Of a stretch of 64,000 nt of DNA, positions 1-19,359 are shown in pieces. The stretch covers positions 1 to 64,000 of the forward strand of contig NIVC01000241.1 in assembly GCA_002269645.1 (NCBI GenBank). The letters run 5' to 3'. The number at the start of each line of letters is the position of its first letter. The stretch's first letter is position 1. The position numbers were made by a program, and so were the translations under genes. Below the pieces are notes generated by a model. The model saw only the letters and a list, made by a program, of their open reading frames with translations, was not told where the DNA came from and searched no databases. The stretch is from Macrostomum lignano. Its lineage: Eukaryota.

Positions 1-82
1 AGCAAAACGAACTATTATAAAAGTATTATAAAAGGCAAAATTGTTATTAAAGGCAACGCAAAAGTTAGTTCACCTCAATAGT

Positions 83-945
83 TCAGATAAACATGCAGGG
101 CTCCGGGAGGTCGCGATAGTAGGGCCAGCCGACTTGAGCGAAAAACCATCGGTACTCTTCGTCGAGGACCGTCAGCGCTGGCGGCGGGTTGGCTCTTATA
201 GCTCGCTGGAGGCGATAGGCGACGTCCTGGAGAACAGCGACAGCTTCCTGGTAACTGAATTGATCCCTCAGAAACTTCAGGTGTGTCCAAATTTGCGAGC
301 ATTGGGGGTAGCGCTGTCGGCTGTCGATCGGTGGTATGCTACTTTCAGTGCGTATTGCTCAATGTGGAAGCGTAGCTTTTCCACCTCTGCTCCGCGAGTC
401 TCCACAAGTTCTCGGACGATGCGATGAAAATCTCTCTGCGAATTCGATTGCTGCTGGCTCGGCTGTAGTGCTGATGGCTGGCTAGACTGCTGCGCTGATT
501 GCAGGCTCGGCTGCAGCGCTGACTGCTGCGCTGATTGCAGGCTCGGCTGCGACGCTGGCTGCTGAGCTGGCGGTGTCGCAGCTGTCGATTTCTTCTGCCG
601 TGGTGCCGGGGTCTTTCTCGATGATGGGGCAGCTGGCGGTGACACCAACTGCTGCGTTCGGCTTGATGTCGACGATCCTGGCGTGGCCTTGACAACATAG
701 GAGCGCACGGGCGCAGCTGCCTGTGCTGCCACCAGGGCGGCGCGCTTCTGCTCGGGGCCTTCTCACGTTTAATTGGCGGCACGGCGATGAAGCTGGCGAT
801 GATGTTTTGTTTGCTTACACCAGGCGCCTTTGGACTGTTGCACATCGAAGCGGTGCCTCATTTCGTCAACATGTTGGCTCGGCTGAGGCTCAATCTCTGA
901 CGACAGGTCACCGATTAACTCTTGCAGAATGTCGACTGAGTTCAT
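83..945 (-). CDS. ORF3 of unit 1 (unknown protein), broken by small indels
   Basis: ATG at 945 gives MNSVDILQELIGDLSSEIEPQPSQHVDEMRHRFDVQQSKGAW. Track ORFs 277..732 and 75..302 cover the remainder in pieces. Homologous to 7994..8683, with the stop at 83-85. Confidence 0.7.
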
Positions 946-1026
946 ATGGTTCTCTTCGAATGACTCTTAGAATAGAAAGGAAGCTAGCAGTGAGCTATGG
1001 GATCTGTGGGGGCTGCGGGGTGCTCG

Positions 1027-1034
1027 TATTTATA
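1027..1034 (-). promoter_or_regulatory. TATA box (TATAAATA) upstream of ORF3, unit 1
   Basis: Plus-strand TATTTATA, about 80 nt upstream of the ATG at 945. A GC box GGGCGGGGC lies at 1085-1093. Both are conserved in unit 2. Confidence 0.6.
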
Positions 1035-1350
1035 GGCTGGCGGGCCGGAAAACTGGACCTCTTCGAAGCACTTCCCTCGCGCGTGGGCGGGGCATGCCAG
1101 ATTTGACAGATTTGACAACTAAATTTTTATGGATTTTCTATTTCTTTTTATAACTTTTTTATTTTTTGATAGATTTTCTTGAGTAAAGTATCAAATTAAA
1201 GATCGCATTTTGTAGATTAATATGGTATTTACAGATTCGCTCTATGTACAGCATGTCAAATTTTATAAGCAGATAAGTAATTCTAATACGGAATTTTAAC
1301 TATTTAACACTGTTTCTTATGGGAAATTGCTTACGTCATGATTTAAGGTG

Positions 1351-4300
1351 CTAAATATTCGCATAGCGCCTTCGGGGCACAAATCCTGTCGCGCCTTCTC
1401 TTTCTCTCTCTTCGCTGAGTCATCTATTGTCTCTAAATTATACCTCCTACTGTGTGACTCGTTCCTCCTCTAACTCTATGCTCCTTCTTCTTCTTCTGAT
1501 GGCTCATCTGAGTCAGTCGCTCTCTCTGTATTCTCACTGTTCAATTCTTCATTTCCTTCGTTTTCACTCTGCGAATTCGGATCTGCGAATACTCTCCATT
1601 GAATTCTGTTTTCTTCGTCTGAGCTTTCCTCCTCTAAAATTTGAACTTCTGGAATTCTAACTTCTTTTTGTCTATGGCAAATTCTTTTCTTCGGCTTCGG
1701 CGTTCTTCTTCTTAGTTGACACTGGTGCTGGTTTTAAATTATTATTAATTTCCTCTGGTAAATCAATTTCGGATTTCGGCACTGGAGTCAGATTATTTCT
1801 ATGTACTAATAGTTTTTCTCCGCTCCTTTCGCCATTGATTTCTCTTTGCACACGGAACACTGTGTCTGATATCTTCGCAAGTACTCGATAGGCTGCTCTC
1901 TTTCTTTCGATGAAACTTTGTGGCTCTCCTCTTGGTGAAGTTGAGGATTGTTGATGAGAGCGAGACAGCCAACTGGCACATTTTTAGGCTGACGATTCTC
2001 AACTTCGTCCTCTTGCCTTTTCTCTCGCACCTTTTCGAGTTGTCTTCGCACAATTGCTTTTGTCTCCTCGATTCTCTTCGCATGATCCAGCACATAACTA
2101 GGATAGTCTCGGTATAGTCTTGGCCTTTTCACAATGCTATCTATTGGCAAATCTGCTTCTCTCCCGAATAGTAAGTAGTGTGGTGTGAACCCAGTAGTTT
2201 GATTAACACTGGTTCGCACAGCTACCAAAGCGGCGGGTATGAGCAGATCCCAATCTGAATGATCCTTTTCAATCAAACAGGTTACAATCGATTTAATTTG
2301 CTTGTTAAATCTTTCGACAAGCCCGTTACTCTGAGCATGGTAAGGCGTAGTGCAAGTATGCTTAATGCCGTATAGGGTACAGAATGCCTGAAATTGGTGA
2401 CTTACAAAAGTCTTGCCATTATCAGTGTGTATCCATTGGCACTGGCCATACTCGCTGAAAATTCTCTCTTGTATCGTTTTGATAACAGTAGCGGATTTCT
2501 GATTCCGAACCGGAAAAGCGAATGGGAACTTTGTTGTACTATCTACACAGTAAGTACATATCGGTGTCCTCTTCTGCTTTCCTTTGATATCGGACCGATC
2601 AAATCTATGTGCAGCCGATGGAATGGCTCACATATCGGAAAGGTCTGCACCGGTGCTCGTACTTTATTTCCGCTTTTACTTTCCAGACACGGGATGCATT
2701 CTGCGATGTACTTTTCAACTGCAGTCACTAACCCCGGCCTCCAGAATCGGTCTCGGACTCGCTGTAGCGTCTTGTCCCGACCTAGGTGGCCTGCTAGCGG
2801 ACTGTCGTGCAGCTCTTTGAATACATCTTTCTCAATCTTCTCTGGCAATACTACTTTTCGTTTACCGTCTTCACTGACTGTCAGCATTTCATCTTCGATT
2901 TTCATCTGCTCGTAGAACTTAACCATCTTCTTCAATCTCCGGATGCATTTTCTGGTAACTTCGGCTCACGCACTTTCTTCTGCTTCCAGTCCATCAAGGT
3001 TCTTATAGAAGGATCAGCATGCTGCGCTGAAGTCAGCTGCTCTTTCTTCAATGGAACCGAGAGGTAATCTGTCAGAAGCTTTCTGCACACTGTCTCTTCC
3101 TCTTCGAAATAGTCTCTTGCATCTTCATAGATGTCATCATCATCTTCGAACTGATCACTGGCATCTTCGTATTCATCATCTGCGAATTCGTCTTCGGAAT
3201 CTGATTCATACTCTTCTGTGAAGTCGGTCTGGCAACTCTGATCTTTCACGCTGCTAGTCACGACTTGTTTCACAGCGCTGGTTTCTATTGTCATCTTAGG
3301 AATTTCGGCCTCATTCTCTTTGATCTTAGCATCTTTCTGTTCAACTGGTGGTTCCGAGGGTCGCCGTGACAATCCATCTGCGTTGGAATGTTTGGCTCCA
3401 CTGCGGTGCTCAATATCGTATTGAAACTCACTCAGTCTTTCAATCCATCTTCCGAGAATTCCTTGGGCTTCGGTCTGGCGCAATAGCCATAGAATTGCCT
3501 TGTGGTCTGTGCGGGCCAGAAACCTTTTGCCAATTAGGTAAAATCGGAAGTGTTTCATGCCATCTACTAGCGCTAATAGCTCTTTTCTGGTAATCGGATA
3601 TCTTTTCTCAGACTCTTTCATTGCTCTGAAGTAAGCAATGGTCTTTCAACCCCGTCCGATTGTATTTGACCCAGGCAAGCACCAATTCGGTCTTCGCTTG
3701 CGTCGGTGTCTAATACCATTCGAACATTTTCGTTCTCTGAGAATTCTGGGTACGCGAGTACTTCGGTCGATGTCATTCTCTGCTTCAACTGCTGGAAAGC
3801 CTCGTCATGCTTCTTGGTCCACTTTTCCCTAAAGTTTTGAATACCTTTCTTAGTTAATTGAAATAGCGGATGCGCTGCCTCTGCGTAATTCTTTACAAAT
3901 CTGCAGTAGTAGTTACACAACCCCAAGAAGCTTCGCAGTTCTTTGACCTCTTTCGGCGTAGGCCATGACTGTATCGCTTCGATCTTAGCTGGGTCTGTTC
4001 TAATCCCTTCTCTTCCTACGATATGCCCTAAGTACTTTAGCTCTTTCTGAAACAAGTTGCACTTTTTTGGTCTTAATTTTAGTCCTGCTGAGATTAGTCT
4101 TTGAAATACTTCTTGCAGATGACCGAGATGATCTTCGAATTTCTCTGAGTATGTCACAATATCATCTATGTACGACATCGCGAATTTGTGCTGTATTCCC
4201 ATCAGCACCAAATTCATGAGTCTCTGGAATGTACCAGGAGCGTTAGACAAGCCCTGTGCCATGACCTGATATTCGAACTGGCCTCTGGTAAGGGTGGAAA

Positions 4301-5851
4301 AGGCTGTCATAAATTTGTGCTCTTCTTTGATAGGTACCTGCCAGTATCCAGAGTTTAAATCTAGACTACTGAAGTACTTGCTTCCAGATAACTGAGCGAA
4401 AGTCTCTTGTATGTTCGGCAATGGATATGGGTAATAGTTCACTCTCGAGTTCAGGACCCTGAAGTCACTGACGATTCTTATGGATCCATCCTTCTTAGGA
4501 ACTATCACTAGCGGCGTTGAATAAGTACTATAGCATGGTCGGATCAGGTTCTTAGCAAGCATGTCGTCAAGTTGCTCATCTACTTGCTTTTGCAGATGTG
4601 GTGGAATTCTGCGTGTTGGAATCCTGACCGGTGTGGTATCTTTTAGAGATATTTCATGAGTCACAAGATGGGTGAGACCCATGTCTTGGTTGGTCTGCGA
4701 AAATGCTTCCTTGTTCTTCTTTAGCAAATCGATCACTAGTCCTTTCTGTTCTGATGTTAGCTCTTCTCCTAAATCGATCTCGTTTATCCAGCTGTACTCA
4801 CTCTCTTCACTCTTCACTGTCCTAATTGCATCATCTGAACTGGCTTGACCTTTGCTGTTAATAGAGTAGGCCAGGCCTCCTGGCTTCAAGGGTTTGGCCA
4901 CTCCAATCAGCGTAGATCTTGTCAGTCTGATATCGTCATTCTGTCGATTGATTATTTCCACTACTCCTGTTCCATCGTTCATGGTCACTAGAGTAGGAAT
5001 CATCTCTAAGGAATTTCTCTTCGTAGTCACTTGGCCTCCAATGGTGTCAATGACCATTGGCGTTCCATAGTTAGCTTCTGATCCTTTAGTCATTCTAATT
5101 GGAATTCGAAGAGCGCTATTCGCTGGTATAGTCACGCTGTTATGGCTGTAATTCGGCAAACCCGTACGGGTAATTTTGTAAACTGAATTGGGATGCAGGT
5201 CCTTCTTTTAATACAAGCATTCCTCTGGAAAGGCTGATGCTGTCGCAGAAGTTCATGAAGAACTCCATCCCGAGTATGTCGTCACACTCGTGATTGCACA
5301 GCAGGAACTCTGTCTCAATCTCTATCTCTCCGAATCGTATTTTCGTTCTGACTTCTCCTTCAATTCGCACACTTGATCCGTCAAACGTAGTCACTCTTCT
5401 AGTAGTCAACTCAATTTCATCACTTCTGAACATCTTTTTCCAAGTACTCTTGCTTAGGAAATTATGTCCAGCTCCTGTGTCTAGCAAAGAAGTAGACCTT
5501 TCGGTTTCTTAGCATTCCATTGACGACTGCTTCTCGTCCTTTTCTCTCCGTATCTTCTTCGAATTCTTCTTCGAATGCTCATTCGGAATTACTGTACTTT
5601 GTACTTTATTATTCGGCCTACTGTGGCTAGGCAGACGCATGACTAGGTGCAAGCGGCATATGTACACGAGGTGCAAAATTTTTATTTGGTTTTCTGTGAA
5701 ATTTATTGAATTCGGCATGCGTTCTGCTGTTACTATACTGTCTGGCATTACTTCGATACGCATTATTTACAAATTCAGAGGCCTGAAATTCGCGATAATT
5801 GTTGCTAGAGGGACGTGGCCTCGCAAAGCGGCCCTCGCTACTCAGTTTCCC
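1351..5851 (-). CDS. pol: pol of unit 1 (PR-RT-RNase H-integrase), split by several 1-nt indels
   Basis: Track ORFs 5140..5487 (LDTG protease), 3618..5159 (YIDD RT), 2932..3621 (RNase H), 2543..2935 (HHCC), 1806..2276 (IN core) and 1672..1860 are pieces of the 1237-aa ORF of unit 2. Confidence 0.93.
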
Positions 5852-6843
5852 TGCTGCTTCTGGTAGTCATCACTCGCTGACCGTTTGGCCTAGCGCTCTG
5901 GCAATTCCTCGCCATGTGGCCAAGCTTCCCGCAATTGTAGCAGGCTCGAGGCTGCTGCTGTTGCTGTGGCTGCCTGTTGAACTGAGGCTGACCGCGCCAT
6001 ACTGGCTGCTGCTGCTGCTGCTGCTGCGGCCGATATCTCGCTGCTGCGGCGGTCCAGCGACCTGAGCGTACGTTTGATATTGATTCTGCGGATGATACTG
6101 CTGACGGCTAGCTCTCTTCTCTTCCATCAGCTCCTCAATCGCCTTCTTCTGTTGCTCTAACTCTGCTCTCTGCTTCTTGATGATGTCCTCAAGCTTTCCT
6201 GATCTGCCTTCTGCTCACTCTCGCCTTCGCCTTTGGCCATTCTCATGTTGACATTCTTGTGAGACATGTTCCACGCAGCCTCCATCCTTCTTAGCATTCT
6301 TCTAGCCTCTTGTAAATTGCCTGGCTGCGCAAAGATTAGCTTCTCACGGGTCTCTGACGGAATTCTGATTCCCTTGATGAATTGCTCAACAATTTCTTCT
6401 TCCCTTTGCTCAACCGTCATATTCGGAAATGCACGCGATGCCAGCTCGATCAAACAGTCTGCGAAAGTCTCTACAGGCTCATTTCTGCCTTGCATTCTTC
6501 CACGAAACTCCTCTCTGAATTCTGCGGAACTACCGATTCTTCCGAATCGCTCAATCAGTCGCTCTTTGAACTCTTCGTATTCAAGATCCTCGGGCAGATT
6601 TAGGCGCTGTACCGCTGCGAATGCAGTGGACAGGTCCAGATTAGCTAGCAATTCCTGCTTCCTATGTTCCTCATCTATCCCTTCTACTTCACAGCGCTGA
6701 TCGAAGGCTGTTAGCCAGATCCGAATGTCTTGCGTAGGTGTGAATTTCTGAATCTTAACGTGTCTCATCGGCCCTATCTCTAGTCGGTTTCGCAATTCTT
6801 CTGCCAGCATGGCGATGGCGTCATTAGCCTGATTCTGATTCAT
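5842..6843 (-). CDS. gag: gag of unit 1, frameshifted near its 3' end
   Basis: ORF 6157..6843 matches unit 2 Gag for about 215 aa. The remainder (CCHC region) is interrupted by indels. Confidence 0.92.
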
Positions 6844-6920
6844 CTTTCTCTACGAAAAACTTTTCAAATTAATCTTCGGAATTCTTCTGAATCTAGTTTA
6901 AGAGTTCGCGCCGTTTCTCT

Positions 6921-6937
6921 AATCCACGCTGCCACCA
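6921..6937 (-). other. Primer-binding site of unit 1 (tRNA-Leu), with 2 small deletions relative to unit 2
   Basis: Plus-strand AATCCACGCTGCCACCA versus AATCCCACCGCTGCCACCA in unit 2. Confidence 0.85.
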
Positions 6938-6939
6938 GC

Positions 6940-7707
6940 TGTGACAGGCCTTTTGGCTCTGTCTTTCTAAACTTCTAACTATTAGTGTTTATTAAATATC
7001 CTACGAGCTGCCACCAAAGTTGTTACAGGCCTTTCACCTCTTACTTTATCAATTTTAATCCCACCGATTTGCCAACTACAGTTATCCTGATTATACTTGC
7101 TTTTACTCCCTAACTATTTCTTAGAATTTCATTTAAATATTTCTGGGTAGCGTTCTTAGTAGCGTTTCTGGTAGCGTTCTTAGTAGCGTTTCTGGTAGCT
7201 TATGGCTTGCTTTCTGGTAGCGTTCTAGTAGCTTATGGCCTGAGCGGTCTAGTACTGGTATATGTATTAGTGTATAGTCCTAATCGGGCGTTCACCGAGA
7301 CTAGAGGGTCACGGCGCCTCTCTTGGTATATCTCCAAGAATTAGTCCCAATTCCCTTCTCTTAGCAAATTTCTTAGAATCGTTTCACAGGTTTTGCAAAT
7401 AAATAAGTCGCTATTTAGCTCAAAGACTTTGAAATGGTTTAGATTGAACTGCTTATTCTGTTCGCAATTATTTGCTCACGAGTAAAAGACAGTTAGAGTA
7501 TATTTGTCGCAAAACCGCTCCTATATATAGTGATTTTCCCCACATACGATTAAAACAAAAAAATAATTCTCCAATTTATTTCGCGCATTAAAACAAACTA
7601 TTATTTGGCGTTCGCGTAGATTCAGTTTCTAAGAAAGATTCGAATATACAGTTATTACATTGAAAGAACATTCGAGTATACTATGATAAAGGCATAGCAC
7701 TAGTACA
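6940..7707 (-). repeat. Central shared LTR (3' LTR of unit 2 and 5' LTR of unit 1); 768 bp, or 687 bp if the U5 end is at 7021
   Basis: TG...CA termini, preceded on the minus strand by the PPT and followed by the PBS. Near-identical to 14850-15617; I saw two substitutions. Confidence 0.93.
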
Positions 7708-7721
7708 ACTTTCCTCCTCTA
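7708..7721 (-). other. 3' polypurine tract of unit 2
   Basis: Minus-strand TAGAGGAGGAAAGT abuts the LTR start TGTACTAG. Confidence 0.9.
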
Positions 7722-7993
7722 TATATCAAATTTTGAACGAAATACTATATTATATGTATACAGTGAAAAATTGATATCGTAGGAAAATGCAGGTGAAAAG
7801 GTGCAAAGCAAGGTGCAGAAAACACAATTCAGTGCTAAAACAATTGGTGCATAAAATGGTTGTGATAGAACTATTATGTAGGTAAACCATTAAAGTGAGA
7901 ACTATTATGGAAGCAAAACGAACTATTATAAAAGTATTATAAAAGGCAAAATTGTTATTAAAGGCAACGCAAAAGTTAGTTCACCTCAATAGT

Positions 7994-8852
7994 TCAGATA
8001 AACATGCAGGGCTCCGGGAGGTCGCGATAGTAGGGCCAGCCGACTTGAGCGAAAAACCATCGGTACTCTTCGTCGAGGACCGTCAGCGCTGGCGGCGGGT
8101 TGGCTCTTATAGCTCGCTGGAGGCGATAGGCGACGTCCTGGAGAACAGCGACAGCTTCCTGGTAACTGAATTGATCCCTCAGAAACTTCAGGTGTGTCCA
8201 AATTTGCGAGCATTGGGGGTAGCGCTGTCGGCTGTCGGATCGGTGGTACGCTACTTTCAGTGCGTATTGCTCAATGTGGAAGCGTAGCTTTTCCACCTCT
8301 GCTCCGCGAGTCTCCACAAGTTCTCGGACGATGCGATGAAAATCTCTCTGCGAATTCGATTGCTGCTGGCTCGGCTGTAGTGCTGATGGCTGGCTAGACT
8401 GCTGCGCTGATTGCAGGCTCGGCTGCAGCGCTGACTGCTGCGCTGATTGCAGGCTCGGCTGCGACGCTGGCTGCTGAGCTGGCGGTGTCGCAGCTGTCGA
8501 TTTCTTCTGCCGTGGTGCCGGGGTCTTTCTCGATGATGGGGCAGCTGGCGGTGACACCAACTGCTGCGTTCGGCTTGATGTCGACGATCCTGGCGTGGCC
8601 TTGACAACATAGGAGCGCACGGGCGCAGCTGCCTGTGCTGCCACCAGGGCGGCGCGCTTCTGCTCGGGGCCTTCGACCCTCATTTGGCGGCAAGGCGATG
8701 AAGCTGGCGATGCTGGCCTTTTGCTGCTTACACCAGGCGCCTTTGGACGTGTTGCACATCGAAGCGGCGCCTCGTTTCGTCATTGGCTGGCTGGGCTCCA
8801 TATCTCTGACAGGTCACCGATTAACTCTTGCAGATGTCGACTGAGTTATCAT
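7994..8852 (-). CDS. ORF3 of unit 2: unknown protein of about 285-290 aa (229-aa open part 7994..8683), with a Q/S/P-rich middle and a helical C-terminal domain
   Basis: Same strand as gag/pol, between the pol stop and the PPT. An upstream ATG at 8852 matches the ATG at 945 in unit 1, and the 5' part is noisy. It contains a 36-bp internal duplication (QPSLQSAQQSAL). No signal peptide or transmembrane stretch is visible. Confidence 0.75.
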
Positions 8853-8932
8853 ATGGTTCTCTTCGAATGACTCTTAGAATAGAAAGGAAGCTAGCAGTGA
8901 GCTATGGGATCTGTGGGGCCTGCGGGTGCTCG

Positions 8933-8999
8933 TATTTATAGGCTGGCGGGCCGAAAAACTGGACCTCTTCGAAGCACTCCCTCGCGCGTGGGGCGGGGC
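8933..8999 (-). promoter_or_regulatory. Internal promoter candidate for ORF3: GC box (8991-8999) and TATA box (8933-8940)
   Basis: Minus-strand order is A-tract (9060-9073), GC box, TATAAATA, then ATG about 80 nt later. The same layout occurs in unit 1. Confidence 0.6.
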
Positions 9000-9256
9000 A
9001 TGCCAGATTTGACAGATTTGACAACTAAATTTTTATGGATTTTCTATTTCTTTTTATAACTTTTTTTTTTTTTGATAGATTTTCTTGAGTAAAGTATCAA
9101 ATTAAAGATCGCATTTTGTAGATTAATATGGTATTTACAGATTCGCTCTATGTACAGCATGTCAAATTTTATAAGCAGATAAGTAATTCTAATACGGAAT
9201 TTTAACTATTTAACACTGTTTCTTATGGGAAATTGCTTACGTCATGATTTAAGGTG

Positions 9257-12200
9257 CTAAATATTCGCGTAGCGCCTTCGGGGCACAAATCCTGTCGCGC
9301 CTTCTCTTTCTCTCTTGCTGAGTCAGTCTCCTAAATTATACCTCTCTGTGTTAGCACGTTCCTCCTCTAACTCTAATGCTCCTTCTTCTTCTTCTGATGG
9401 CTCATCTGAGTCAGTCGCTCTCTCTGTATTCTCACTGTTCAATTCTTCATTTCCTTCGTTTTCACTCTGCGAATTCGGATCTGCGAATACTCTCCATTGA
9501 ATTCTGTTTTCTTCGTCTGAGCTTTCCTCCTCTAAAATTTGAACTTCTGGAATTCTAACTTCTTTTTGTCTATGGCAAATTCTTTTCTTCGGCTTCGGCT
9601 GTTCTTCTTCTTAGTTGACACTGGTGCTGGTTTTAAATTATTATTAATTTCCTCTGGTAAATCAATTTCGGATTTCGGCACTGGAGTCAGATTATTTCTA
9701 TGTACTAATAGTTTTTCTCCGCTCCTTTCGCCATTGATTTCTCTTTGCACACGGAAACTGTGTCTGATATCTTCGCAAGTACTCGATAGGCTGCTCTCTT
9801 CTTTCGATGAAACTTGTGGCTCTCCTCTTGGTGAAGTTGAGGGTTGTTGATGAGAGCGAGACAGCCAACTGGCACATTTTTAGGCTGACGATTCTCAACT
9901 TCGTCCTCTTGCCTTTTCTCTCGCACCTTTTCGAGTTGTCTTCGCACAATTGCTTTTGTCTCCTCGATTCTCTTCGCATGATCCAGCACATAACTAGGAT
10001 AGTCTCGGTATAGTCTTGGCCTTTTCACAATGCTATCTATTGGCAAATCTGCTTCTCTCCCGAATAGTAAGTAGTGTGGTGTGAACCCAGTAGTTTGATT
10101 AACACTGGTTCGCACAGCTACCAAAGCGGCGGGTATGAGCAGATCCCAATCTGAATGATCCTTTTCAATCAAACAGGTTACAATCGATTTAATTTGCTTG
10201 TTAAATCTTTCGACAAGCCCGTTACTCTGAGCATGGTAAGGCGTAGTGCAAGTATGCTTAATGCCGTATAGGGTACAGAATGCCTGAAATTGGTGACTTA
10301 CAAAAGTCTTGCCATTATCAGTGTGTATCCATTGGCACTGGCCATACTCGCTGAAAATTCTCTCTTGTATCGTTTTGATAACAGTAGCGGATTTCTGATT
10401 CCGAACCGGAAAAGCGAATGGGAACTTCGTTGTACTATCTACAACAGTAAGTACATATCGGTGTCCTCTTCTGCTTTCCTTTGATATCGGACCGATCAAA
10501 TCTATGTGCAGCCGATGGAATGGCTCACATATCGGAAAGGTCTGCACCGGTGCTCGTACTTTATTTCCGCTTTTACTTTCCAGACACGGGATGCATTCTG
10601 CGATGTACTTTTCAACTGCAGTCACTAACCCCGGCCTCCAGAATCGGTCTCGGACTCGCTGTAGCGTCTTGTCCCGACCTAGGTGGCCTGCTAGCGGACT
10701 GTCGTGCAGCTCTTTGAATACATCTTTCTCAATCTTCTCTGGCAATACTACTTTTCGTTTACCGTCTTCACTGACTGTCAGCATTTCATCTTCGATTTTC
10801 ATCTGCTCGTAGAACTTAACCATCTTCTTCAATTCTCCGGATGCATTTTCTGGTAACTTCGGCTCACGCACTTTCTTCTGCTTCCAGTCCATCAAGGTTC
10901 TTATAGAAGGATCAGCATGCTGCGCTGAAGTCAGCTGCTCTTTCTTCAATGGAACCGAGAGGTAATCTGTCAGAAGCTTTCTGCACACTGTCTCTTCCTC
11001 TTCGAAATAGTCTCTTGCATCTTCATAGATGTCATCATCATCTTCGAACTGATCACTGGCATCTTCGTATTCATCATCTGCGAATTCGTCTTCGGAATCT
11101 GATTCATACTCTTCTGTGAAGTCGGTCTGGCAACTCTGATCTTTCACGCTGCTAGTCACGACTTGTTTCACAGCGCTGGTTTCTATTGTCATCTTAGGAA
11201 TTTCGGCCTCATTCTCTTTGATCTTAGCATCTTTCTGTTCAACTGGTGGTTCCGAGGGTCGCCGTGACAATCCATCTGCGTTGGAATGTTTGGCTCCACT
11301 GCGGTGCTCAATATCGTATTGAAACTCACTCAGTCTTTCAATCCATCTTCCGAGAATTCCTTGGGCTTCGGTCTGGCGCAATAGCCATAGAATTGCCTTG
11401 TGGTCTGTGCGGGCCAGAAACCTTTTGCCAATTAGGTAAAATCGGAAGTGTTTCATGCCATCTACTAGCGCTAATAGCTCTTTTCTGGTAATCGGATATC
11501 TTTTCTCAGACTCTTTCATTGCTCTGCTGAAGTAAGCAATGGGTCTTTCAACCCCGTCCGATTGTATTTGACCCAGGCAAGCACCAATTCGGTCTTCGCT
11601 TGCGTCGGTGTCTAATACCATTCGAACATTTTCGTTCTCTGAGAATTCTGGGTACGCGAGTACTTCGGTCGATGTCATTCTCTGCTTCAACTGCTGGAAA
11701 GCCTCGTCATGCTTCTTGGTCCACTTTTCCCTAAAGTTTTGAATACCTTTCTTAGTTAATTGAAATAGCGGATGCGCTGCCTCTGCGTAATTCTTTACAA
11801 ATCTGCAGTAGTAGTTACACAACCCCAAGAAGCTTCGCAGTTCTTTGACCTCTTTCGGCGTAGGCCATGACTGTATCGCTTCGATCTTAGCTGGGTCTGT
11901 TCTAATCCCTTCTCTTCCTACGATATGCCCTAAGTACTTTAGCTCTTTCTGAAACAAGTTGCACTTTTTTGGTCTTAATTTTAGTCCTGCTGAGATTAGT
12001 CTTTGAAATACTTCTTGCAGATGACCGAGATGATCTTCGAATTTCTCTGAGTATGTCACAATATCATCTATGTACGACATCGCGAATTTGTGCTGTATTC
12101 CCATCAGCACCAAATTCATGAGTCTCTGGAATGTACCAGGAGCGTTAGACAAGCCCTGTGCCATGACCTGATATTCGAACTGGCCTCTGGTAAGGGTGGA

Positions 12201-13754
12201 AAAGGCTGTCATAAATTTGTGCTCTTCTTTGATAGGTACCTGCCAGTATCCAGAGTTTAAATCTAGACTACTGAAGTACTTGCTTCCAGATAACTGAGCG
12301 AAAGTCTCTTGTATGTTCGGCAATGGATATGGGTAATAGTTCACTCTCGAGTTCAGGACCCTGAAGTCACTGACGATTCTTATGGATCCATCCTTCTTAG
12401 GAACTATCACTAGCGGCGTTGAATAAGTACTATAGCATGGTCGGATCAGGTTCTTAGCAAGCATGTCGTCAAGTTGCTCATCTACTTGCTTTTGCAGATG
12501 TGGTGGAATTCTGCGTGTTGGAATCCTGACCGGTGTGGTATCTTTTAGAGATATTTCATGAGTCACAAGATGGGTGAGACCCATGTCTTGGTTGGTCTGC
12601 GAAAATGCTTCCTTGTTCTTCTTTAGCAAATCGATCACTAGTCCTTTCTGTTCTGATGTTAGCTCTTCTCCTAAATCGATCTCGTTTATCCAGCTGTACT
12701 CACTCTCTTCACTCTTCACTGTCCTAATTGCATCATCTGAACTGGCTTGACCTTTGCTGTTAATAGAGTAGGCCAGGCCTCCTGGCTTCAAGGGTTTGGC
12801 CACTCCAATCAGCGTAGATCTTGTCAGTCTGATATCGTCATTCTGTCGATTGATTATTTCCACTACTCCTGTTCCATCGTTCATGGTCACTAGAGTAGGA
12901 ATCATCTCTAAGGAATTTCTCTTCGTAGTCACTTGGCCTCCAATGGTGTCAATGACCATTGGCGTTCCATAGTTAGCTTCTGATCCTTTAGTCATTCTAA
13001 TTGGAATTCGAAGAGCGCTATTCGCTGGTATAGTCACGCTGTTATGGCTGTAAATTCGGCAAACCCGTACGGGTAATTTTGTAAACTGAATTGGGATGCA
13101 GGTCCCTTCTTTTAATACAAGCATTCCTCTGGAAAGGCTGATGCTGTCGCAGAAGTTCATGAAGAACTCCATCCCGAGTATGTCGTCACACTCGTGATTG
13201 CACAGCAGGAACTCTGTCTCAATCTCTATCTCTCCGAATCGTATTTTCGTTCTGACTTCTCCTTCAATTCGCACACTTGATCCGTCAAACGTAGTCACTC
13301 TTCTAGTAGTCAACTCAATTTCATCACTTCTGAACATCTTTTTCCAAGTACTCTTGCTTAGGAAATTATGTCCAGCTCCTGTGTCTAGCAGGAAGTAGAC
13401 CTTTCGGTTTCTTAGCATTCCATTGACGACTGCTTCTCGTCCTTTTCTCTCCGTATCTTCTTCGAATTCTTTCTTCGAATGCTCATTCGGAATTACTGTA
13501 CTTTGTACTTTATTATTCGGCCTACTGTGGCTGGCAGACGCATGACTAGGTGCAAGCGGCGTATGTACACGAGGTGCAAAATTTTTATTTGGTTTTCTGT
13601 GAAATTTATTGAATTCGGCATGCGTTCTGCTGTTACTATACTGTCTGGCATTACTTCGATACGCATTATTTACAAATTCAGAGGCCTGAAATTCGCGATA
13701 ATTGTTGCTAGAGGGACGTGGCCTCGCAAAGCGGCCCTCGCTACTCAGTTTCCC
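9257..13754 (-). CDS. pol: pol of unit 2, expressed as Gag-Pol by -1 frameshift; 1237-aa open ORF 9705..13418 plus a frameshifted C-terminal tail
   Basis: Motifs: LLDTGA protease, YIDD RT, DAS RNase H, H-X6-H/C-X2-C zinc finger and a D,D(35)E-type integrase core. The -1 frame is open from 13754 to the ATG at 13418. After correcting indels near 9760 and 9600 (unit 1 keeps the frame at 9760), the tail reads FRVQREING...VHRNNL...RYNL...RRRYANI and stops at 9257-9259. Confidence 0.95.
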
Positions 13755-14749
13755 TGCTGCTTCTGGTAGTTCACCACTCGCTGACCGTTTGGCCTAGCGC
13801 TCTGGCAATTCCTCGCCATGTGGCCAAGCTTCCCGCAATTGTAGCAGGCTCGAGGCTGCTGCTGTTGCTGTGGCTGCCTGTTGAACTGAGGCTGACCGCG
13901 CCATACTGGCTGCTGCTGCTGCTGCTGCTGCGGCCGATATCTCGGCTGCTGCGGCGGTCCAGCGACCTGAGCGTACGTTTGATATTGATTCTGCGGATGA
14001 TACTGCTGACGGCTAGCTCTCTTCTCTTCCATCAGCTCCTCAATCGCCTTCTTCTGTTGCTCTAACTCTGCTCTCTGCTTCTTGATGATGTCCTCAAGCT
14101 TCTCCTGATCTGCCTTCTGCTCACTCTCGCCTTCGCCTTTGGCCATTCTCATGTTGACATTCTTGTGAGACATGTTCCACGCAGCCTCCATCCTTCTTAG
14201 CATTCTTCTAGCCTCTTGTAAATTGCCTGGCTGCGCAAAGATTAGCTTCTCACGGGTCTCTGACGGAATTCTGATTCCCTTGATGAATTGCTCAACAATT
14301 TCTTCTTCCCTTTGCTCAACCGTCATATTCGGAAATGCACGCGATGCCAGCTCGATCAAACAGTCTGCGAAAGTCTCTACAGGCTCATTTCTGCCTTGCA
14401 TTCTTCCACGAAACTCCTCTCTGAATTCTGCGGAACTACCGATTCTTCCGAATCGCTCAATCAGTCGCTCTTTGAACTCTTCGTATTCAAGATCCTCGGG
14501 CAGATTTAGGCGCTGTACCGCTGCGAATGCAGTGGACAGGTCCAGATTAGCTAGCAATTCCTGCTTCCTATGTTCCTCATCTATCCCTTCTACTTCACAG
14601 CGCTGATCGAAGGCTGTTAGCCAGATCCGAATGTCTTGCGTAGGTGTGAATTTCTGAATCTTAACGTGTCTCATCGGCCCTATCTCTAGTCGGTTTCGCA
14701 ATTCTTCTGCCAGCATGGCGATGGCGTCATTAGCCTGATTCTGATTCAT
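13745..14749 (-). CDS. gag: gag of unit 2, 334 aa, with a single CCHC zinc knuckle
   Basis: CYNCGKLGHMARNC knuckle near the C-terminus and a capsid-like helical N-terminal region. Starts about 80 nt after the PBS. Confidence 0.95.
   Translation of the reverse strand: MNQNQANDAIAMLAEELRNRLEIGPMRHVKIQKFTPTQDIRIWLTAFDQRCEVEGIDEEHRKQELLANLDLSTAFAAVQRLNLPEDLEYEEFKERLIERFGRIGSSAEFREEFRGRMQGRNEPVETFADCLIELASRAFPNMTVEQREEEIVEQFIKGIRIPSETREKLIFAQPGNLQEARRMLRRMEAAWNMSHKNVNMRMAKGEGESEQKADQEKLEDIIKKQRAELEQQKKAIEELMEEKRASRQQYHPQNQYQTYAQVAGPPQQPRYRPQQQQQQQPVWRGQPQFNRQPQQQQQPRACYNCGKLGHMARNCQSARPNGQRVVNYQKQQGN
13748..13754 (-). promoter_or_regulatory. -1 ribosomal frameshift heptamer G GGA AAC directly before the gag stop (also 5845-5851 in unit 1)
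   Basis: X XXY YYZ heptamer in the gag frame. The pol frame is -1 relative to gag (13747-13418 = 329 nt). A GC-rich self-complementary segment follows after about 6 nt. Confidence 0.85.
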
Positions 14750-14828
14750 CTTTTCTCTACGAAAAACTTTTCAAATTAATCTTCGGAATTCTTCTGAATC
14801 TAGCTTTAAGAGTTCGCGCCGTTTCTCT

Positions 14829-14847
14829 AATCCCACCGCTGCCACCA
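14829..14847 (-). other. Primer-binding site, 19-nt complement of the tRNA-Leu(AAG-type) 3' end including CCA
   Basis: Minus-strand TGGTGGCAGCGGTGGGATT. Metazoan tRNA-Leu(AAG) ends ...AATCCCACCGCTGCCA+CCA (recalled, not searched). Confidence 0.9.
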
Positions 14848-14849
14848 GC

Positions 14850-15617
14850 TGTGACAGGCCTTTTGGCTCTGTCTTTCTAAACTTCTAACTATTAGTGTTT
14901 ATTAAATATCCTACGAGCTGCCACCAAAGTTGTTACAGGCCTTTCACCTCTTACTTTATCAATTTTAATCCCACCGATTTGCCAACTACAGTTATCCTGA
15001 TTATACTTGCTTTTACTCCCTAACTATTTCTTAGAATTTCATTTAAATATTTCTGGGTAGCGTTCTTAGTAGCGTTTCTGGTAGCGTTCTTAGTAGCGTT
15101 TCTGGTAGCTTATGGCTTGCTTTCTGGTAGCGTTCTAGTAGCTTATGGCCTGAGCGGTCTAGTACTGGTATATGTATTAGTGTATAGTCCTAATCGGGCG
15201 TTCACCGAGACTAGAGGGTCACGGCGCCTCTCTTGGTATATCTCCAAGAATTAGTCCCAATTCCCTTCTCTTAGCAAATTTCTTAGAATCGTTTCACAGG
15301 TTTTGCAAATAAATAAGTCGCTATTTAGCTCAAAGACTTTGAAATGGTTTAGATTGAACTGCTTATTCTGTTCGCAATTATTTGCTCACGGGTAAAAGAC
15401 AGTTAGAGTATATTTGTCGCAAAACCGCTCCTATATATAGTGATTTTCCCCACATACGATTAAAACAAAAAAATAATTCTCCAATTTAATTCGCGCATTA
15501 AAACAAACTATTATTTGGCGTTCGCGTAGATTCAGTTTCTAAGAAAGATTCGAATATACAGTTATTACATTGAAAGAACATTCGAGTATACTATGATAAA
15601 GGCATAGCACTAGTACA
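14850..15617 (-). repeat. 5' LTR of unit 2 (outer LTR of the array)
   Basis: Copy of 6940-7707. The junction with unique DNA is at ...TAGTACA|TTTTA. It has a TATATATA box near 15432 and short GTAGCGTT(T)CT repeats at about 15057-15140. Confidence 0.93.
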
Positions 15618-15872: not shown

Positions 15873-16297
15873 ATGGGCTGCTTTCTGTCTAGGCCTGTCA
15901 CTGGCGAGAAGCCTCCACTGCTTGACTATTACCAGCAGCAGCAGCAACAACTATTGCAATATCACCAGCAGCAGCAGCAGCAGCAGCAGATGCAGTATGA
16001 ACAGCAGCACTACAAATACCAGCAGTTCCAACAGCATCAACAGCAGCAGCATCATCAGGCAACTGCCTGGCAGGTGGGTGCCGCCACCCCGGTGACCAGA
16101 ATCCGATGCCGCCTGCCGCAGCCGCACTCGGTGGAGCAGCTGCCGCCGCCGCCGCCTCCAGCCAGACGTCAGAGCCAGCTGGTAGCGAGGGCCCTGTTCG
16201 CCTACAAGGCGCAACATCAGGACGACCTGGCGTTTTGCGTCGGCGACAAACTGGAGATCCTTAGTGGCGGCACCCGGCAGCCCTGGTGGTTCGCTAG
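15873..16297 (+). CDS. Src-family tyrosine kinase exon 1: MGC lipidation motif, poly-Q unique domain, first part of SH3
   Basis: MGCFLS start and ALFAY...DDLAFCVGDKLEIL...WWFAR. Donor AG|GTAGAA (phase 2). Confidence 0.9.
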
Positions 16298-16718
16298 GTA
16301 GAACTGATTCAGTATATGCGCTCGTAGGTGTCACTGAAGAGGGGCAATCTTAGGTATCCTATTCCAATGGGAATCTCATGTTTGCTTTGCCCAAAAGGAG
16401 CAACCCAGGAACACAACAGTTTTACAATCATGTAATGCCCACAGCCCTCCTGCAGTTACTATTACCAATATTATTGCGGGTTTGAATCATATAACAACGC
16501 TGACTTCCTGAGCAAGAAGGTACTACTAGCTCTTCTCCTCCTATACTCCAGGCTACTACCTGAGTTTCGTCCACTTCTGCCCCGTTTTTGAGTGGATGTC
16601 ACTTTCTTATCTACAGTGTTCCCTGCTTAGACCTTGTCTCCTTAAAGCCTTCACTTTCCAGCATCTCTTCTATCTTGTTGAGGGTTTTTAATCGAACGCT
16701 CGAATTCTCTGTTGCCAG

Positions 16719-16893
16719 GCACTCGGCTACCGGTCTCACAGGCTACGTGCCCGGCAGTCACCTGCAATTGGAGTCGGACGATCGGGCCAGTTCCTTGGCC
16801 GCCTGGTTCGAGGTCAGCCGTCGGGACGCTGATCGGCACCTCCTGCTGCCCGGAAATCCAAGCGGCACCTACATATTGCGGCCCAGCTCGCAG
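16719..16893 (+). CDS. Src-family kinase exon 2: end of SH3, start of SH2
   Basis: Acceptor TTGCCAG|, GYVP (SH3), WF...YILRPS (SH2), donor CAG|GTGAGG. Confidence 0.9.
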
Positions 16894-17063
16894 GTGAGGG
16901 ATGAAAAGGCTCAGCTGTCGGCGGCGTCTCGGAGTGGCACTGGGGAGGTCCGCGTACTCATGTAGCGGAAACAGTCGTGAAAAAAGACTTCTGATTGATT
17001 GGAGCAGCAATTTAGAAGGCATTTCATAGCCTTAGAAGTATATTAGTTCTTTCATAGAGTTTC

Positions 17064-17340
17064 GACTTGTAGCCTAGTGGTTGAGCGTTGGACTCACGAG
17101 TGAAAGGTCTGGGTTTCGATTCTCTACCCGCTGGGAACAATTTGGGTAAGACACTCAACTCTGCATTAAAATGGGTGCCAGCATTAGCTAGAGTAGTTGA
17201 GGATGCGTGTGGCGACCCCCCAGTCCTTCGATTGAACAGCCGTACGCAGCCATCAGACGCGCCCCGCAATAATGTATACGTCTAAGCTGTCGGTTGCGCA
17301 TCTGCCCATTAGGGCAGGTGTAGTTAATTATTAATTATTG
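17064..17340 (+). mobile_element. tRNA-derived SINE with a CORE-like central segment, in Src intron 2
   Basis: A box TAGCCTAGTGG and B box GGTTTCGATTC. These are followed by TTGGGTAAGACACTCAAC...TAAAATGGG, resembling the MIR/CORE consensus TTGGGCAAGTCACTTAAC...TAAAATGGG. The 3' end is approximate. Confidence 0.55.
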
Positions 17341-17432
17341 TCATTAGGTTTGAAAAAAACCCTGAACGGGCTAAAACTCCTAGTCCGTGCCATAATTATA
17401 ATGCTATGCATTGCTTTACGTAGTTTGGGAAC

Positions 17433-17595
17433 GGACCAGCTCAGCGGTAAACGTGTCCGACTCTCGCGCCACGACTCCTGGTTTGATTCCCTATGTGGTC
17501 AAAATTCATTATTGGCTTGTACGCAATAACTGGCCAGGAGTTGTCCTGCGATTCACACCCATGAGAGAATAAAGTCAAGGTCGCTGCATAACCCT
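17433..17595 (+). mobile_element. Second tRNA-headed SINE-like element
   Basis: A-box-like AGCTCAGCGG and B-box-like GGTTTGATTCC. The tail motif GAATAAAGTCAAGGTCGCTG is shared with the element at 22591. Confidence 0.45.
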
Positions 17596-17864
17596 ATAGT
17601 ACTCGTACGCTATAGAAGCGTACAATATTGGCGCGTTTGCATGTTCTCAGGAGTCAGAGAAATGGCCTTGGTTGTTGGACGATGTCGCCGAAGGCGTTGC
17701 TCTTGTGAATAACTTTACGTTTTATTTAAGTAAAACAGACAAGAACTTCTTTGATATGGGACGGTGGTATTTTTCGAAGGAGTTATTTATTGAAAGTTCA
17801 CCAGGACTTTTGTGGTTCGCTTCCAGTTCATTTTTAGAAGACCTTGTTTTACCTTTTTCTACAG

Positions 17865-18181
17865 GGCCAATACGCTCTCAGTGTCCGCGTCAAGGACCCC
17901 AATCTGGACCGGAACTTCCTGGTGCGCCACTTTCGCATCCGGTGCACAGACGCTGGCGGTTATTACATAGCGCCTCGAGTCACCTTCCCAACACTGCGCG
18001 ACCTGCTCGCCCACTACTCGGAGGTTGAAGACATCGGCGGCATCGGCTGTCGGCTAACCGCGCCCTGTCCGCGCGCCTATAAGCCGCCGGTGCAATTCCG
18101 CGACGTTGAGGTCAACAGGGCCTGCGTCCGGCTTGGAGGCCGGCTGGGCGGAGGCTCCTTTGGCGAGGTGTATCTGGCCAG
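17865..18181 (+). CDS. Src-family kinase exon 3: rest of SH2, linker, Gly-rich loop
   Basis: Acceptor TTCTACAG|, GQYALSV...VRHFRI...LGGGSFGEVY, donor AG|GTAGGC. Confidence 0.92.
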
Positions 18182-18234
18182 GTAGGCGCTTTTGAGTCAA
18201 CTCCATGAGCCGTTGGGTTCTTCTGTCATGGGTA

Positions 18235-18510
18235 TTCTTCTGCTGACCCATCATGGAGCTCTTCTGCTCACCCATCATGGAATTCTTCTGCTCACCAATC
18301 ATGGAATTCTTCTGCTCACCAATCACTGAATTCTTCTGCTCACCAATCATGAAGTTCTTCTGCTCACCAATCATGGATTTATGCTCACCAATTATGTACT
18401 TATGCTCACCAATCATGGAGTTCTGCTCACCAATCATGGAGTTCTGCTCACCAATCATGGGGTTCTGCTCACGAATAATGAAATTCTTATGCTCACCAAT
18501 CATCGAATTA
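18235..18510. repeat. 21-24-bp minisatellite (TTCTTCTGCTCACCAATCATGGAA) in Src intron 3
   Basis: About 12 tandem copies seen directly. Confidence 0.9.
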
Positions 18511-18596
18511 TTCTTCTCCTTAATCATGAGATTGACTTGAGTTCCAAAGACACGTAGGAGAGTTGAATTTTTAGTTGATCTTTCCCCCGCCACCAG

Positions 18597-19359
18597 ATGG
18601 AACGACTGTCTTGACGTAGCCGTCAAAACGATGAAGCCGAACGCCACAGACGCCGAGCGCTTCATCTCGGAGGCGCGGATTCTGCACCGGCTGAACCATC
18701 CCCGGGTTGTGCAATTGCTGGGAGTCTGCACGGACGGCGAGCCGCTCTACATCATCACCGAGCTCATGCCGGAGGGCGCTCTGCTTGATTTTCTTCGCCG
18801 AGAGGCCGGTTCGAGCCTGTGCTTTGACCAGCTAATAGACATGATGGCCCAGGTGGCCGACGGCATGGCCTACCTGGAGACCATGAACTTTGTGCACCGG
18901 GACCTGCGCGCGGCCAACATTCTGGTGGGGCAGAACCGCTGGCTCAAAGTGGCCGACTTCGGCCTCGCTCGCATCATGGACGCGGCCGGGTCAGCCACGG
19001 CTGGCGCCAAATTTCCAATCCGATGGACGGCGCCGGAGGCGGCCGGCTGGCAGCGGGCGTTCAGCGTCAAATCGGACGTGTGGTCGTTCGGCGTCCTGAT
19101 GTGGGAGATTGTCACCTACGGCCGGGTGCCGTACCCGGGCATGGCCAACCGGCAGGTGCTGCAGGCGGTGGCCGGCGGCTACCGGATGCCGAACCCGCAC
19201 GACGGTAGCCGGATTCGCTGCGACCCGGGCGTCTACCTGATCATGAGCGACTGCTGGGCGGAGTGCCCGGCAAGCAGGCCGACATTTTCCTACCTGAAGG
19301 ACGCTCTGGAGAACTACAGCGTGACAGCTGAGGCGCAGTACGTGCAGGAGAAGCTCTGA
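18597..19359 (+). CDS. Src-family kinase exon 4: kinase domain and C-terminal tail (whole protein 559 aa)
   Basis: VAVK, HRDLRAAN (Src-type), DFG, WTAPE, SDVWSFG and the tail EAQY. The four exon lengths sum to 1680 nt with matching phases. Confidence 0.95.

Follow-up and report, generated by a model that had tools for sequence, protein, structure and literature searches.

What is the third gene that a Gypsy retrotransposon of the flatworm Macrostomum lignano carries between pol and its 3' LTR? The question arises from positions 1 to 64,000 of contig NIVC01000241.1, a 64,000-nucleotide stretch hereinafter called the window, in which a sequence-only reading had noticed an apparent non-envelope accessory gene with a promoter of its own. 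We compared this gene (ORF3) with its copies and homologues in the genome (a redundant assembly of 764 Mb), with the elements that carry it, and with protein, structure, and literature collections. We find ORF3 to be an ancient accessory gene that a single Gypsy clade has conserved and that does not encode an envelope protein.

ORF3 and the element that carries it

Two tandem Gypsy units with one common LTR occupy positions 1-15617 on the minus strand. Unit 1 (1-7707) and unit 2 (7912-15617) are 98.9% identical and differ mostly by indels of 1 to 6 nt, a pattern that is, on the face of the sequence, that of long-read assembly error. Ty3/Gypsy features are present in the form of 768-bp LTRs with TG...CA ends, a primer-binding site (PBS), and a polypurine tract, and 4-bp target-site duplications were found in at least 6 of 10 copies examined. 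The pol domains follow the order PR-RT-RH-IN, and gag encodes one CCHC knuckle. The features of the two units are as follows.

83-945, minus strand: ORF3 of unit 1 (L024), broken by indels, with a further break near 327
1027-1034, minus strand: TATA box of unit 1
1049-1069, minus strand: H1-type motif of unit 1
6940-7707, minus strand: LTR common to both tandem units
7708-7720, minus strand: polypurine tract
7994-8852, minus strand: ORF3 of unit 2 (ATG at 8852, stop at 7994-7996), its frame broken by small N-terminal indels; 291 aa in unbroken copies elsewhere
7997-8359, minus strand: C-terminal five-helix domain of ORF3, about 118 aa (AlphaFold2 prediction, alignments, and selection)
8933-8940, minus strand: TATA box TATAAATA of the putative internal promoter of unit 2, 81 nt from the ATG
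8955-8975, minus strand: 21-bp motif of unit 2, identical to the promoter of host histone H1 group L179-L181
8990-8999, minus strand: GC box of unit 2, not conserved in other families
9061-9073, minus strand: A-tract in the AT-rich spacer after pol
9249-13793, minus strand: pol of unit 2, encoding PR-RT-RH-IN, with a frameshift close to the 3' end; about 1,513 codons in unbroken copies
13745-14749, minus strand: gag of unit 2, with its single CCHC knuckle
14830-14847, minus strand: PBS, which we take to be tRNA-Leu-like, with older degenerate copies inside the LTR end
14850-15617, minus strand: 5' LTR of unit 2 (TG...CA, 768 bp)

The LTR end (window 14830-14990 and 6920-7080; also L073 and L084) contains several of these older degenerate copies of the LTR end plus PBS in tandem, and the U5 region therefore seems to grow by PBS duplication. 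Tandem elements that share an LTR occur at more than one locus of the clade (window 1-15617, G000:C2404, and C1098). A TAR-like hairpin in the LTR was considered and rejected (z, -0.9 to +1.2).

The frame at 7994-8779 is open for 261 codons, and the 229 codons given by the sequence-only reading are those counted from an internal Met; its estimate of about 285 to 290 aa for the complete protein has to be replaced by 291 aa, the full length in unbroken copies. ATG 8852 lies in a different frame from 7994-8779 because of small indels in the N-terminal part. The pol stop had been placed at 9257, which is a stop in a neighbouring frame; the unbroken pol of L039 ends at the window equivalent of 9249-9251. 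A DNA search of the genome, in which the best 40 of 65 candidates were scored, yielded 30 close loci. Half of these (15/30) have an open frame of 290 to 291 aa, and the other 15, both window units among them, differ by small indels. Assembled contigs from 8 public runs, three of which are identified as RNA by skipped GT..AG introns of the neighbouring host gene, span the ORF3 frame with no indels except a repeat unit. None of the joints listed for these contigs is a splice joint into ORF3.

Protein searches of the genome (best 150 of 227 and best 150 of 281 candidates) recovered homologues from 100% down to 26% identity, and 72 ORF3 loci were examined with 10 kb of context. The 27 full-length representatives, which encode 279 to 535 aa in the same sense as pol, all lie in an element context, after pol or a short gag and before the 3' LTR. 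About a dozen of the 72 loci have no gag or pol match within 10 kb and mostly have broken frames. Three loci (L077, L078, and L079; G000:C2369, C420, and C1201) hold ORF3-like frames with a 6-residue insertion. Neither gag nor pol nor a pair of LTRs lies within 10 kb of these frames, which are either old remnants or a relocated copy.

ORF3 is under purifying selection across the Gypsy clade. In the C-terminal domain, pN/pS was 0.11 to 0.28, not about 1, in all 11 non-overlapping pairs, seven of which were at synonymous saturation; the comparison of L038 with L031 gave a dN of 0.115 with saturated synonymous sites. Of the 253 pairs in an all-against-all comparison, 173 were at saturation; dN/dS in the 78 that could be used had a median of 0.37 and reached at most 0.91. 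Because its homologues remain open and conserved in position down to 26% identity and are under purifying selection, ORF3 is not a chance reading frame, and the third gene seen in the window is real.

The ORF3 protein and its sister counterparts

The predicted anatomy of the ORF3 protein is that of a regulatory adaptor: a disordered chain that bears short motifs is joined to a single folded domain. The first 30 residues are acidic in all 27 full-length representatives (net charge, -7 to -11), and this stretch holds an amphipathic helix. A phi-x-x-phi-phi helix was found in 18 of the 27 (shuffle mean, 7.6; maximum, 14). In 17 proteins the first 26 residues contain a class-1 export-signal pattern, for which the shuffles averaged 4.1 and never exceeded 10. 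These counts are not independent, as the members are kin; the window's own protein has neither the class-1 pattern nor RLG. A PxRxxTxP motif, present in 24/27, is followed by an invariant KR and then by a short helix. The remaining middle part is low in complexity and predicted to be disordered. The 12-aa repeat noticed in the window is genuine and varies in number among copies, giving proteins of 275, 279, and 291 aa. The last 118 residues are predicted to form five helices (AlphaFold2 pLDDT, 87; pTM, 0.83), and D, P, E, W, W, and P are invariant in this domain in 33 of 33 aligned sequences. Neither catalytic nor membrane features were detected in ORF3.

Could the gene nevertheless be a degenerate or unusual env or fusogen? 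Its position between pol and the 3' LTR would allow this, and precedent exists in Tor3b/4b of Oikopleura, Gypsy-type elements of an animal with a third gene after pol, in which env is driven from an internal promoter demonstrated by 5' RACE (PMC4402516). The Tor gene encodes a transmembrane glycoprotein, whereas the ORF3 product is predicted to be soluble. Across the 27 representatives, the maximum 19-residue hydropathy is 1.11, the first 35 residues do not exceed 0.75, and no signal peptide was found; the N terminus is acidic, each protein has only 1 to 4 cysteines, and no viral structure was matched. ORF3 is not env because no hydrophobic segment exceeds 1.11 in any of the 27, as the lack of a signal peptide or membrane anchor in the window had indicated, and, barring a membrane-anchored isoform, we regard the env reading as hardly credible.

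The C-terminal domain, which the sequence-only reading did not recognise, matched no described family in the libraries searched, Foldseek included. Pfam gave no family match (the best was a histone-tail-like low-complexity segment with an E value of 0.11, not conserved in the homologues), PDB sequences gave none (best E value, 0.15), Foldseek searches against the PDB and viral structures gave none at an E value of 0.001, and the ESM Atlas gave none. The best result of a wide fold search with VIA was the AppA SCHIC cap (Z, 8.1; rmsd, 2.3; 81 aligned), which was not taken as kinship because the score is below the level meaningful for helical bundles. Outside homologues were absent from protein collections in word-based searches, which are weak for distant relatives, and from metagenome and viral contigs. 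A Gag-derived restriction factor was also considered as a candidate and rejected (profile comparison of ORF3 with the element's Gag: probability, 0.2%; P, 0.25).

Positional counterparts of ORF3 were found in sister lineages, which were delineated by an integrase search (at least 73% for the ORF3 clade and 56 to 63% for the sisters). In group g1 (L244, L245, L246, and L255; 4 of the 14 sister loci), a soluble ORF begins 2 to 5 nt after the pol stop. The C-terminal domain of the g1 ORF can be aligned, weakly, to that of ORF3 across 99 columns (P by hhalign, 6.4e-4; probability, 28%). The score was 26.9, and none of 30 column shuffles, a lenient control, scored above 13.8. Groups g2 and g3 have a low-complexity stretch and a helical tail in frame with pol, which reaches 1,798 codons in L250; this extension comprises about 250 to 400 residues with a helical domain at its end (L250:1647-7043, L253, and L257). 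No significant match to ORF3 was obtained with either the g2 or the g3 tail (P, 0.35 and 0.47), and the g2 tail has an acidic L-S-L-S start and RLG/RSRSP motifs in common with deep-clade ORF3s. Fused, abutting, and independent states of the module relative to integrase all exist, and an RT tree of this genome's copies with outgroups gives no order of fusion versus fission.

The sequence-only reading had suggested, among other possibilities, a captured host or viral gene, and this was not borne out. Trees of this genome's copies agree in their deep branches between ORF3 and RT; the gene was therefore inherited with the clade and shuffled among close relatives. The searches turned up no homologue in hosts or viruses, the deep branches of the ORF3 tree follow those of RT, and the sister counterparts lie right after integrase or are fused to it; the comparison points to an old element-native module.

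The region upstream of ORF3 and the histone H1 motif

ORF3 is likely transcribed from an internal promoter of its own; the upstream motifs are strong, if indirect, evidence for a polymerase II promoter assembled from elements of the host's histone genes. The A-tract, the GC box, and TATAAATA described in the sequence-only reading are all in place in the window, and, as far as motifs can tell, the promoter-like region appears to be conserved at a fixed distance from the ATG. The upstream sequences of diverged families have one common motif just before the TATA position. Protein identity falls to about 33% within the window's subclade; the H1-type core of this motif lies at -104 to -135 in all 14 of the subclade's members and was found in 0/13 deeper members, 0/5 LTRs, and 0/14 sister-lineage loci. 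A canonical TATA box stands at -81 to -111 in 8 of the 14 subclade members; its absence from the other 6 and from most of the deepest families counts against the internal-promoter reading. Four deeper families have CCAAT and TATA instead of the H1 motif. A TAGCAAC pair with CCAAT occurs in 7/14 subclade members, and four H2A promoters have the same arrangement in reversed orientation.

A genome search with a 16-mer of the motif returned 176 matches, versus 0 for the reversed control. Ten loci outside elements were examined and comprise two histone H1 genes, five minisatellites or short repeats, and three other loci; the motif is therefore not exclusive to H1. The motif combined with TATA gave 54 matches (reversed control, 0), of which 3 are at H1 genes and the others, by coordinates, are upstream of ORF3 matches. 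The motif was detected upstream of 12 of 15 linker-histone loci, representing four of five gene groups in this redundant assembly, and upstream of none of 53 core-histone loci (0/30 H3, 0/9 H2A/H2B, and 0/14 H4). Two variants exist among the H1 promoters, and both recur in elements. The longest word in common with an H1 promoter is 21 bp for the window (group L179) and 30 bp for L073 (group L182), and the longest in common with H3 promoters is only 7 to 11 bp.

Several observations concern the host sequences themselves. The histone genes have an H1-specific promoter motif (L173-L184), absent from H4, H3, H2A, and H2B, and an H2A-specific tandem GTTGCTA motif (L222, L224, L225, and L229). The H1-type motif is also the unit of several minisatellites of 24 to 44 bp (L113-L116 and L121; G000:C181, C512, C111, C1, and C302), at least one of which lies inside an intron.

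The H1-type motif is comparable to the H4 box, or Site II, as an H1-promoter element with the core GGTCC. A link to this vertebrate element was rejected, GGTCC being present within 250 nt in 0/14 H4 promoters. The ORF3 motif differs from the H4 box in standing in none of the 14 H4 promoters and in its length of 21 to 30 bp. By analogy, HINFP may serve as a lead, and as a lead only, for the factor on the H1-type motif. Judging by its title, Nirala 2021 is said to link Hinfp to transposon repression. HINFP control of a histone H1 promoter element has been described for the H4 box/Site II (PMC6027317), and loss of Hinfp in Drosophila depletes H1 by 95% (PMC11113634, citing Nirala 2021).

Cassette exchange and the possible role of ORF3

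ORF3 and the LTR have evidently been exchanged together, as one cassette, among gag-pol backbones that are nearly identical and with a satellite lineage that lacks pol. The RT is identical in five elements whose ORF3 domains are about 99 to 100, 81, 64, and 53% identical to the window's. In sliding comparisons of L041, L074, and L111, identity is 94 to 100% in gag-pol and about 30 to 75% in ORF3 and the LTR, with the switch point in the last 500 nt of pol. The 30 close copies are divided between the autonomous backbone (16 copies) and a pol-less backbone (14 copies), which combines near-identical LTRs, the pol 3' tail, and ORF3 with a distinct Gag-like protein of 191 to 197 aa. This satellite protein (L040:4722-5300 in G000:C2688; also in L032, L075, L084, and L091) is open in 12 of 15 copies and is under purifying selection, with saturated synonymous sites; it is about 41% identical to the helper Gag, has a variant C-x2-C knuckle, and has no Pfam match. 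The pairing of ORF3 with the LTR was judged on six copies with verified ends, and a 25-copy correlation was excluded, several of its LTR starts being incomplete. L031 and L038 have the same LTR with domains 81% identical, and L032 has the L031 domain with an LTR start at 80%. The pairing is thus loose, and strict cognate recognition is therefore unlikely.

We tentatively propose, giving it somewhat less than an even chance, that the ORF3 product acts in the nucleus of dividing cells to increase expression of the element itself. The motif would be bound by a host factor that also drives the H1 genes, and a short ORF3 RNA would appear together with H1 in stem or germ cells that are dividing. The protein would enter the nucleus through its basic KR motif, its five-helix domain might dock onto the chromatin of the element or a chromatin protein of the host, and its acidic N-terminal helix would recruit co-activators or displace silencing, turning up the LTR. 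That ORF3 travels with the LTR and is kept by pol-less satellites is as expected of a gene acting on LTR output. Several features count against a nuclear activator: a classic K-K/R-x-K/R signal is present in only 9/27 proteins, the C-terminal domain, with a charge of +1 to +8, is no more than mildly basic and is unlike any DNA-binding fold known, and the N-terminal helix fits a nuclear export pattern about equally well. Foamy viruses have an internal promoter and, just before the 3' LTR, the accessory gene Tas/Bel1, whose product has an acidic activation region and a basic signal. The mechanism proposed for ORF3 would resemble this logic. Pfam, PDB sequence, and fold searches gave no match to Tas/Bel1; the acidic part of ORF3 is N-terminal, and its element lacks env.

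The presence of the module fused to or abutting integrase in sister lineages favours a role tied to integration. ORF3 might accordingly be a detached integrase tail, acting as a chromatin or import adaptor for the pre-integration complex from a chromodomain-like position, as in chromoviruses. We hold this to be unlikely: the g1 ORF, immediately after the pol stop and with an alignable domain, would fit it, as would the in-frame g2 and g3 tails and the g2 motifs that resemble those of deep-clade ORF3s, but neither tail is significant, column shuffling is lenient, and the RT tree is silent on order. An integrase partner, moreover, needs no separate histone-type promoter, yet the gene has a putative one and is kept by pol-less satellites. 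Less probable still is a shuttling adaptor for export or processing of unspliced genomic RNA, comparable to Rev, Rex, or Rec. The export pattern in 17 of 27 proteins, the basic, Arg/Pro-rich middle, the RLG and RSP motifs of deeper families, and a possible polyadenylation-like AT-rich stretch between pol and ORF3 are consistent with such an adaptor; set against them are the window protein with neither the pattern nor RLG, the relatedness of the members counted, a conserved LTR stretch with no stable hairpin, and no Pfam match to export adaptors at E values up to 10.

Lower again we would place a negative or specificity factor for copy-number control or interference among families and satellites, in which conflict would keep diverged alleles. 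Divergent domains stand beside identical RT, the domain evolves about ten times faster than RT, and the same cassettes are found in satellites that have a conserved short Gag of their own. No positive selection was seen, though, ORF3 has no likeness to Gag (P, 0.25), and recombination at the common pol 3' tail also explains the exchange. A broader scenario we consider possible but doubtful: an integrase tail would have become a separate, exchangeable regulatory gene under a copied host H1-promoter element, the signal for the host's silencing linker histone would also make the element's counter-factor, and helpers and old short-Gag satellites would trade ORF3-LTR cassettes.

Third genes with an internal promoter, soluble accessory ORFs, and non-env ORF3s are known kinds. 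The additional ORFs of Grande and Retand, with TRP28, are reportedly treated by Gomez-Orte 2013. Maize Grande and Retand have accessory ORFs between pol and the 3' LTR (including TRP28), the Grande ORF has its own promoter and encodes a nuclear protein, and ORFs of this type are kept in non-autonomous elements (PMC11963269, PMC7264820). These plant ORFs are antisense and have an unrelated domain, whereas ORF3 is sense and has no PF04195 match; the relevant parts of the same two papers report no histone-type promoter, whereas the ORF3 region has the H1-type motif. The ORF3s of bdelloid rotifers, which encode GDSL, DEDDy, coiled-coil, or transmembrane proteins typically from spliced messages (PMC5408684), are likewise non-env third ORFs of animal LTR elements with modular exchange. 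They are recognisable captured enzymes or membrane proteins, whereas the ORF3 described here has no known domain and follows the RT tree.

The literature searched describes neither this family of ORF3 proteins nor its H1-type motif, nor an exchange of cassettes with a satellite that encodes Gag, nor the series of integrase tails, and the accessible portion of the main paper on the LTR elements of this species (PMC12801592) contains neither "ORF" nor "envelope." ORF3 represents an apparently undescribed family of proteins; it has many natural alleles, its folded domain is compact, and its putative promoter points to histone H1 expression. To our knowledge, animals offer few examples of regulators or anti-silencing factors encoded by transposons. 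M. lignano is a flatworm model with transgenic reporters and RNAi, in which two questions opened here are directly testable, namely, how retrotransposons that lack env match the timing of their activity to stem or germ cells and whether fission of integrase can give rise to accessory genes. The H1-type motif may also be of use when a compact promoter element is wanted for dividing cells.

Next to the tandem units, at 15900-19200 on the plus strand, the window contains a host gene with a Q-rich start and SH3/SH2-like exons, presumably a member of the Src-like family. It is spliced in the RNA contigs and begins about 300 bp from the 5' LTR.
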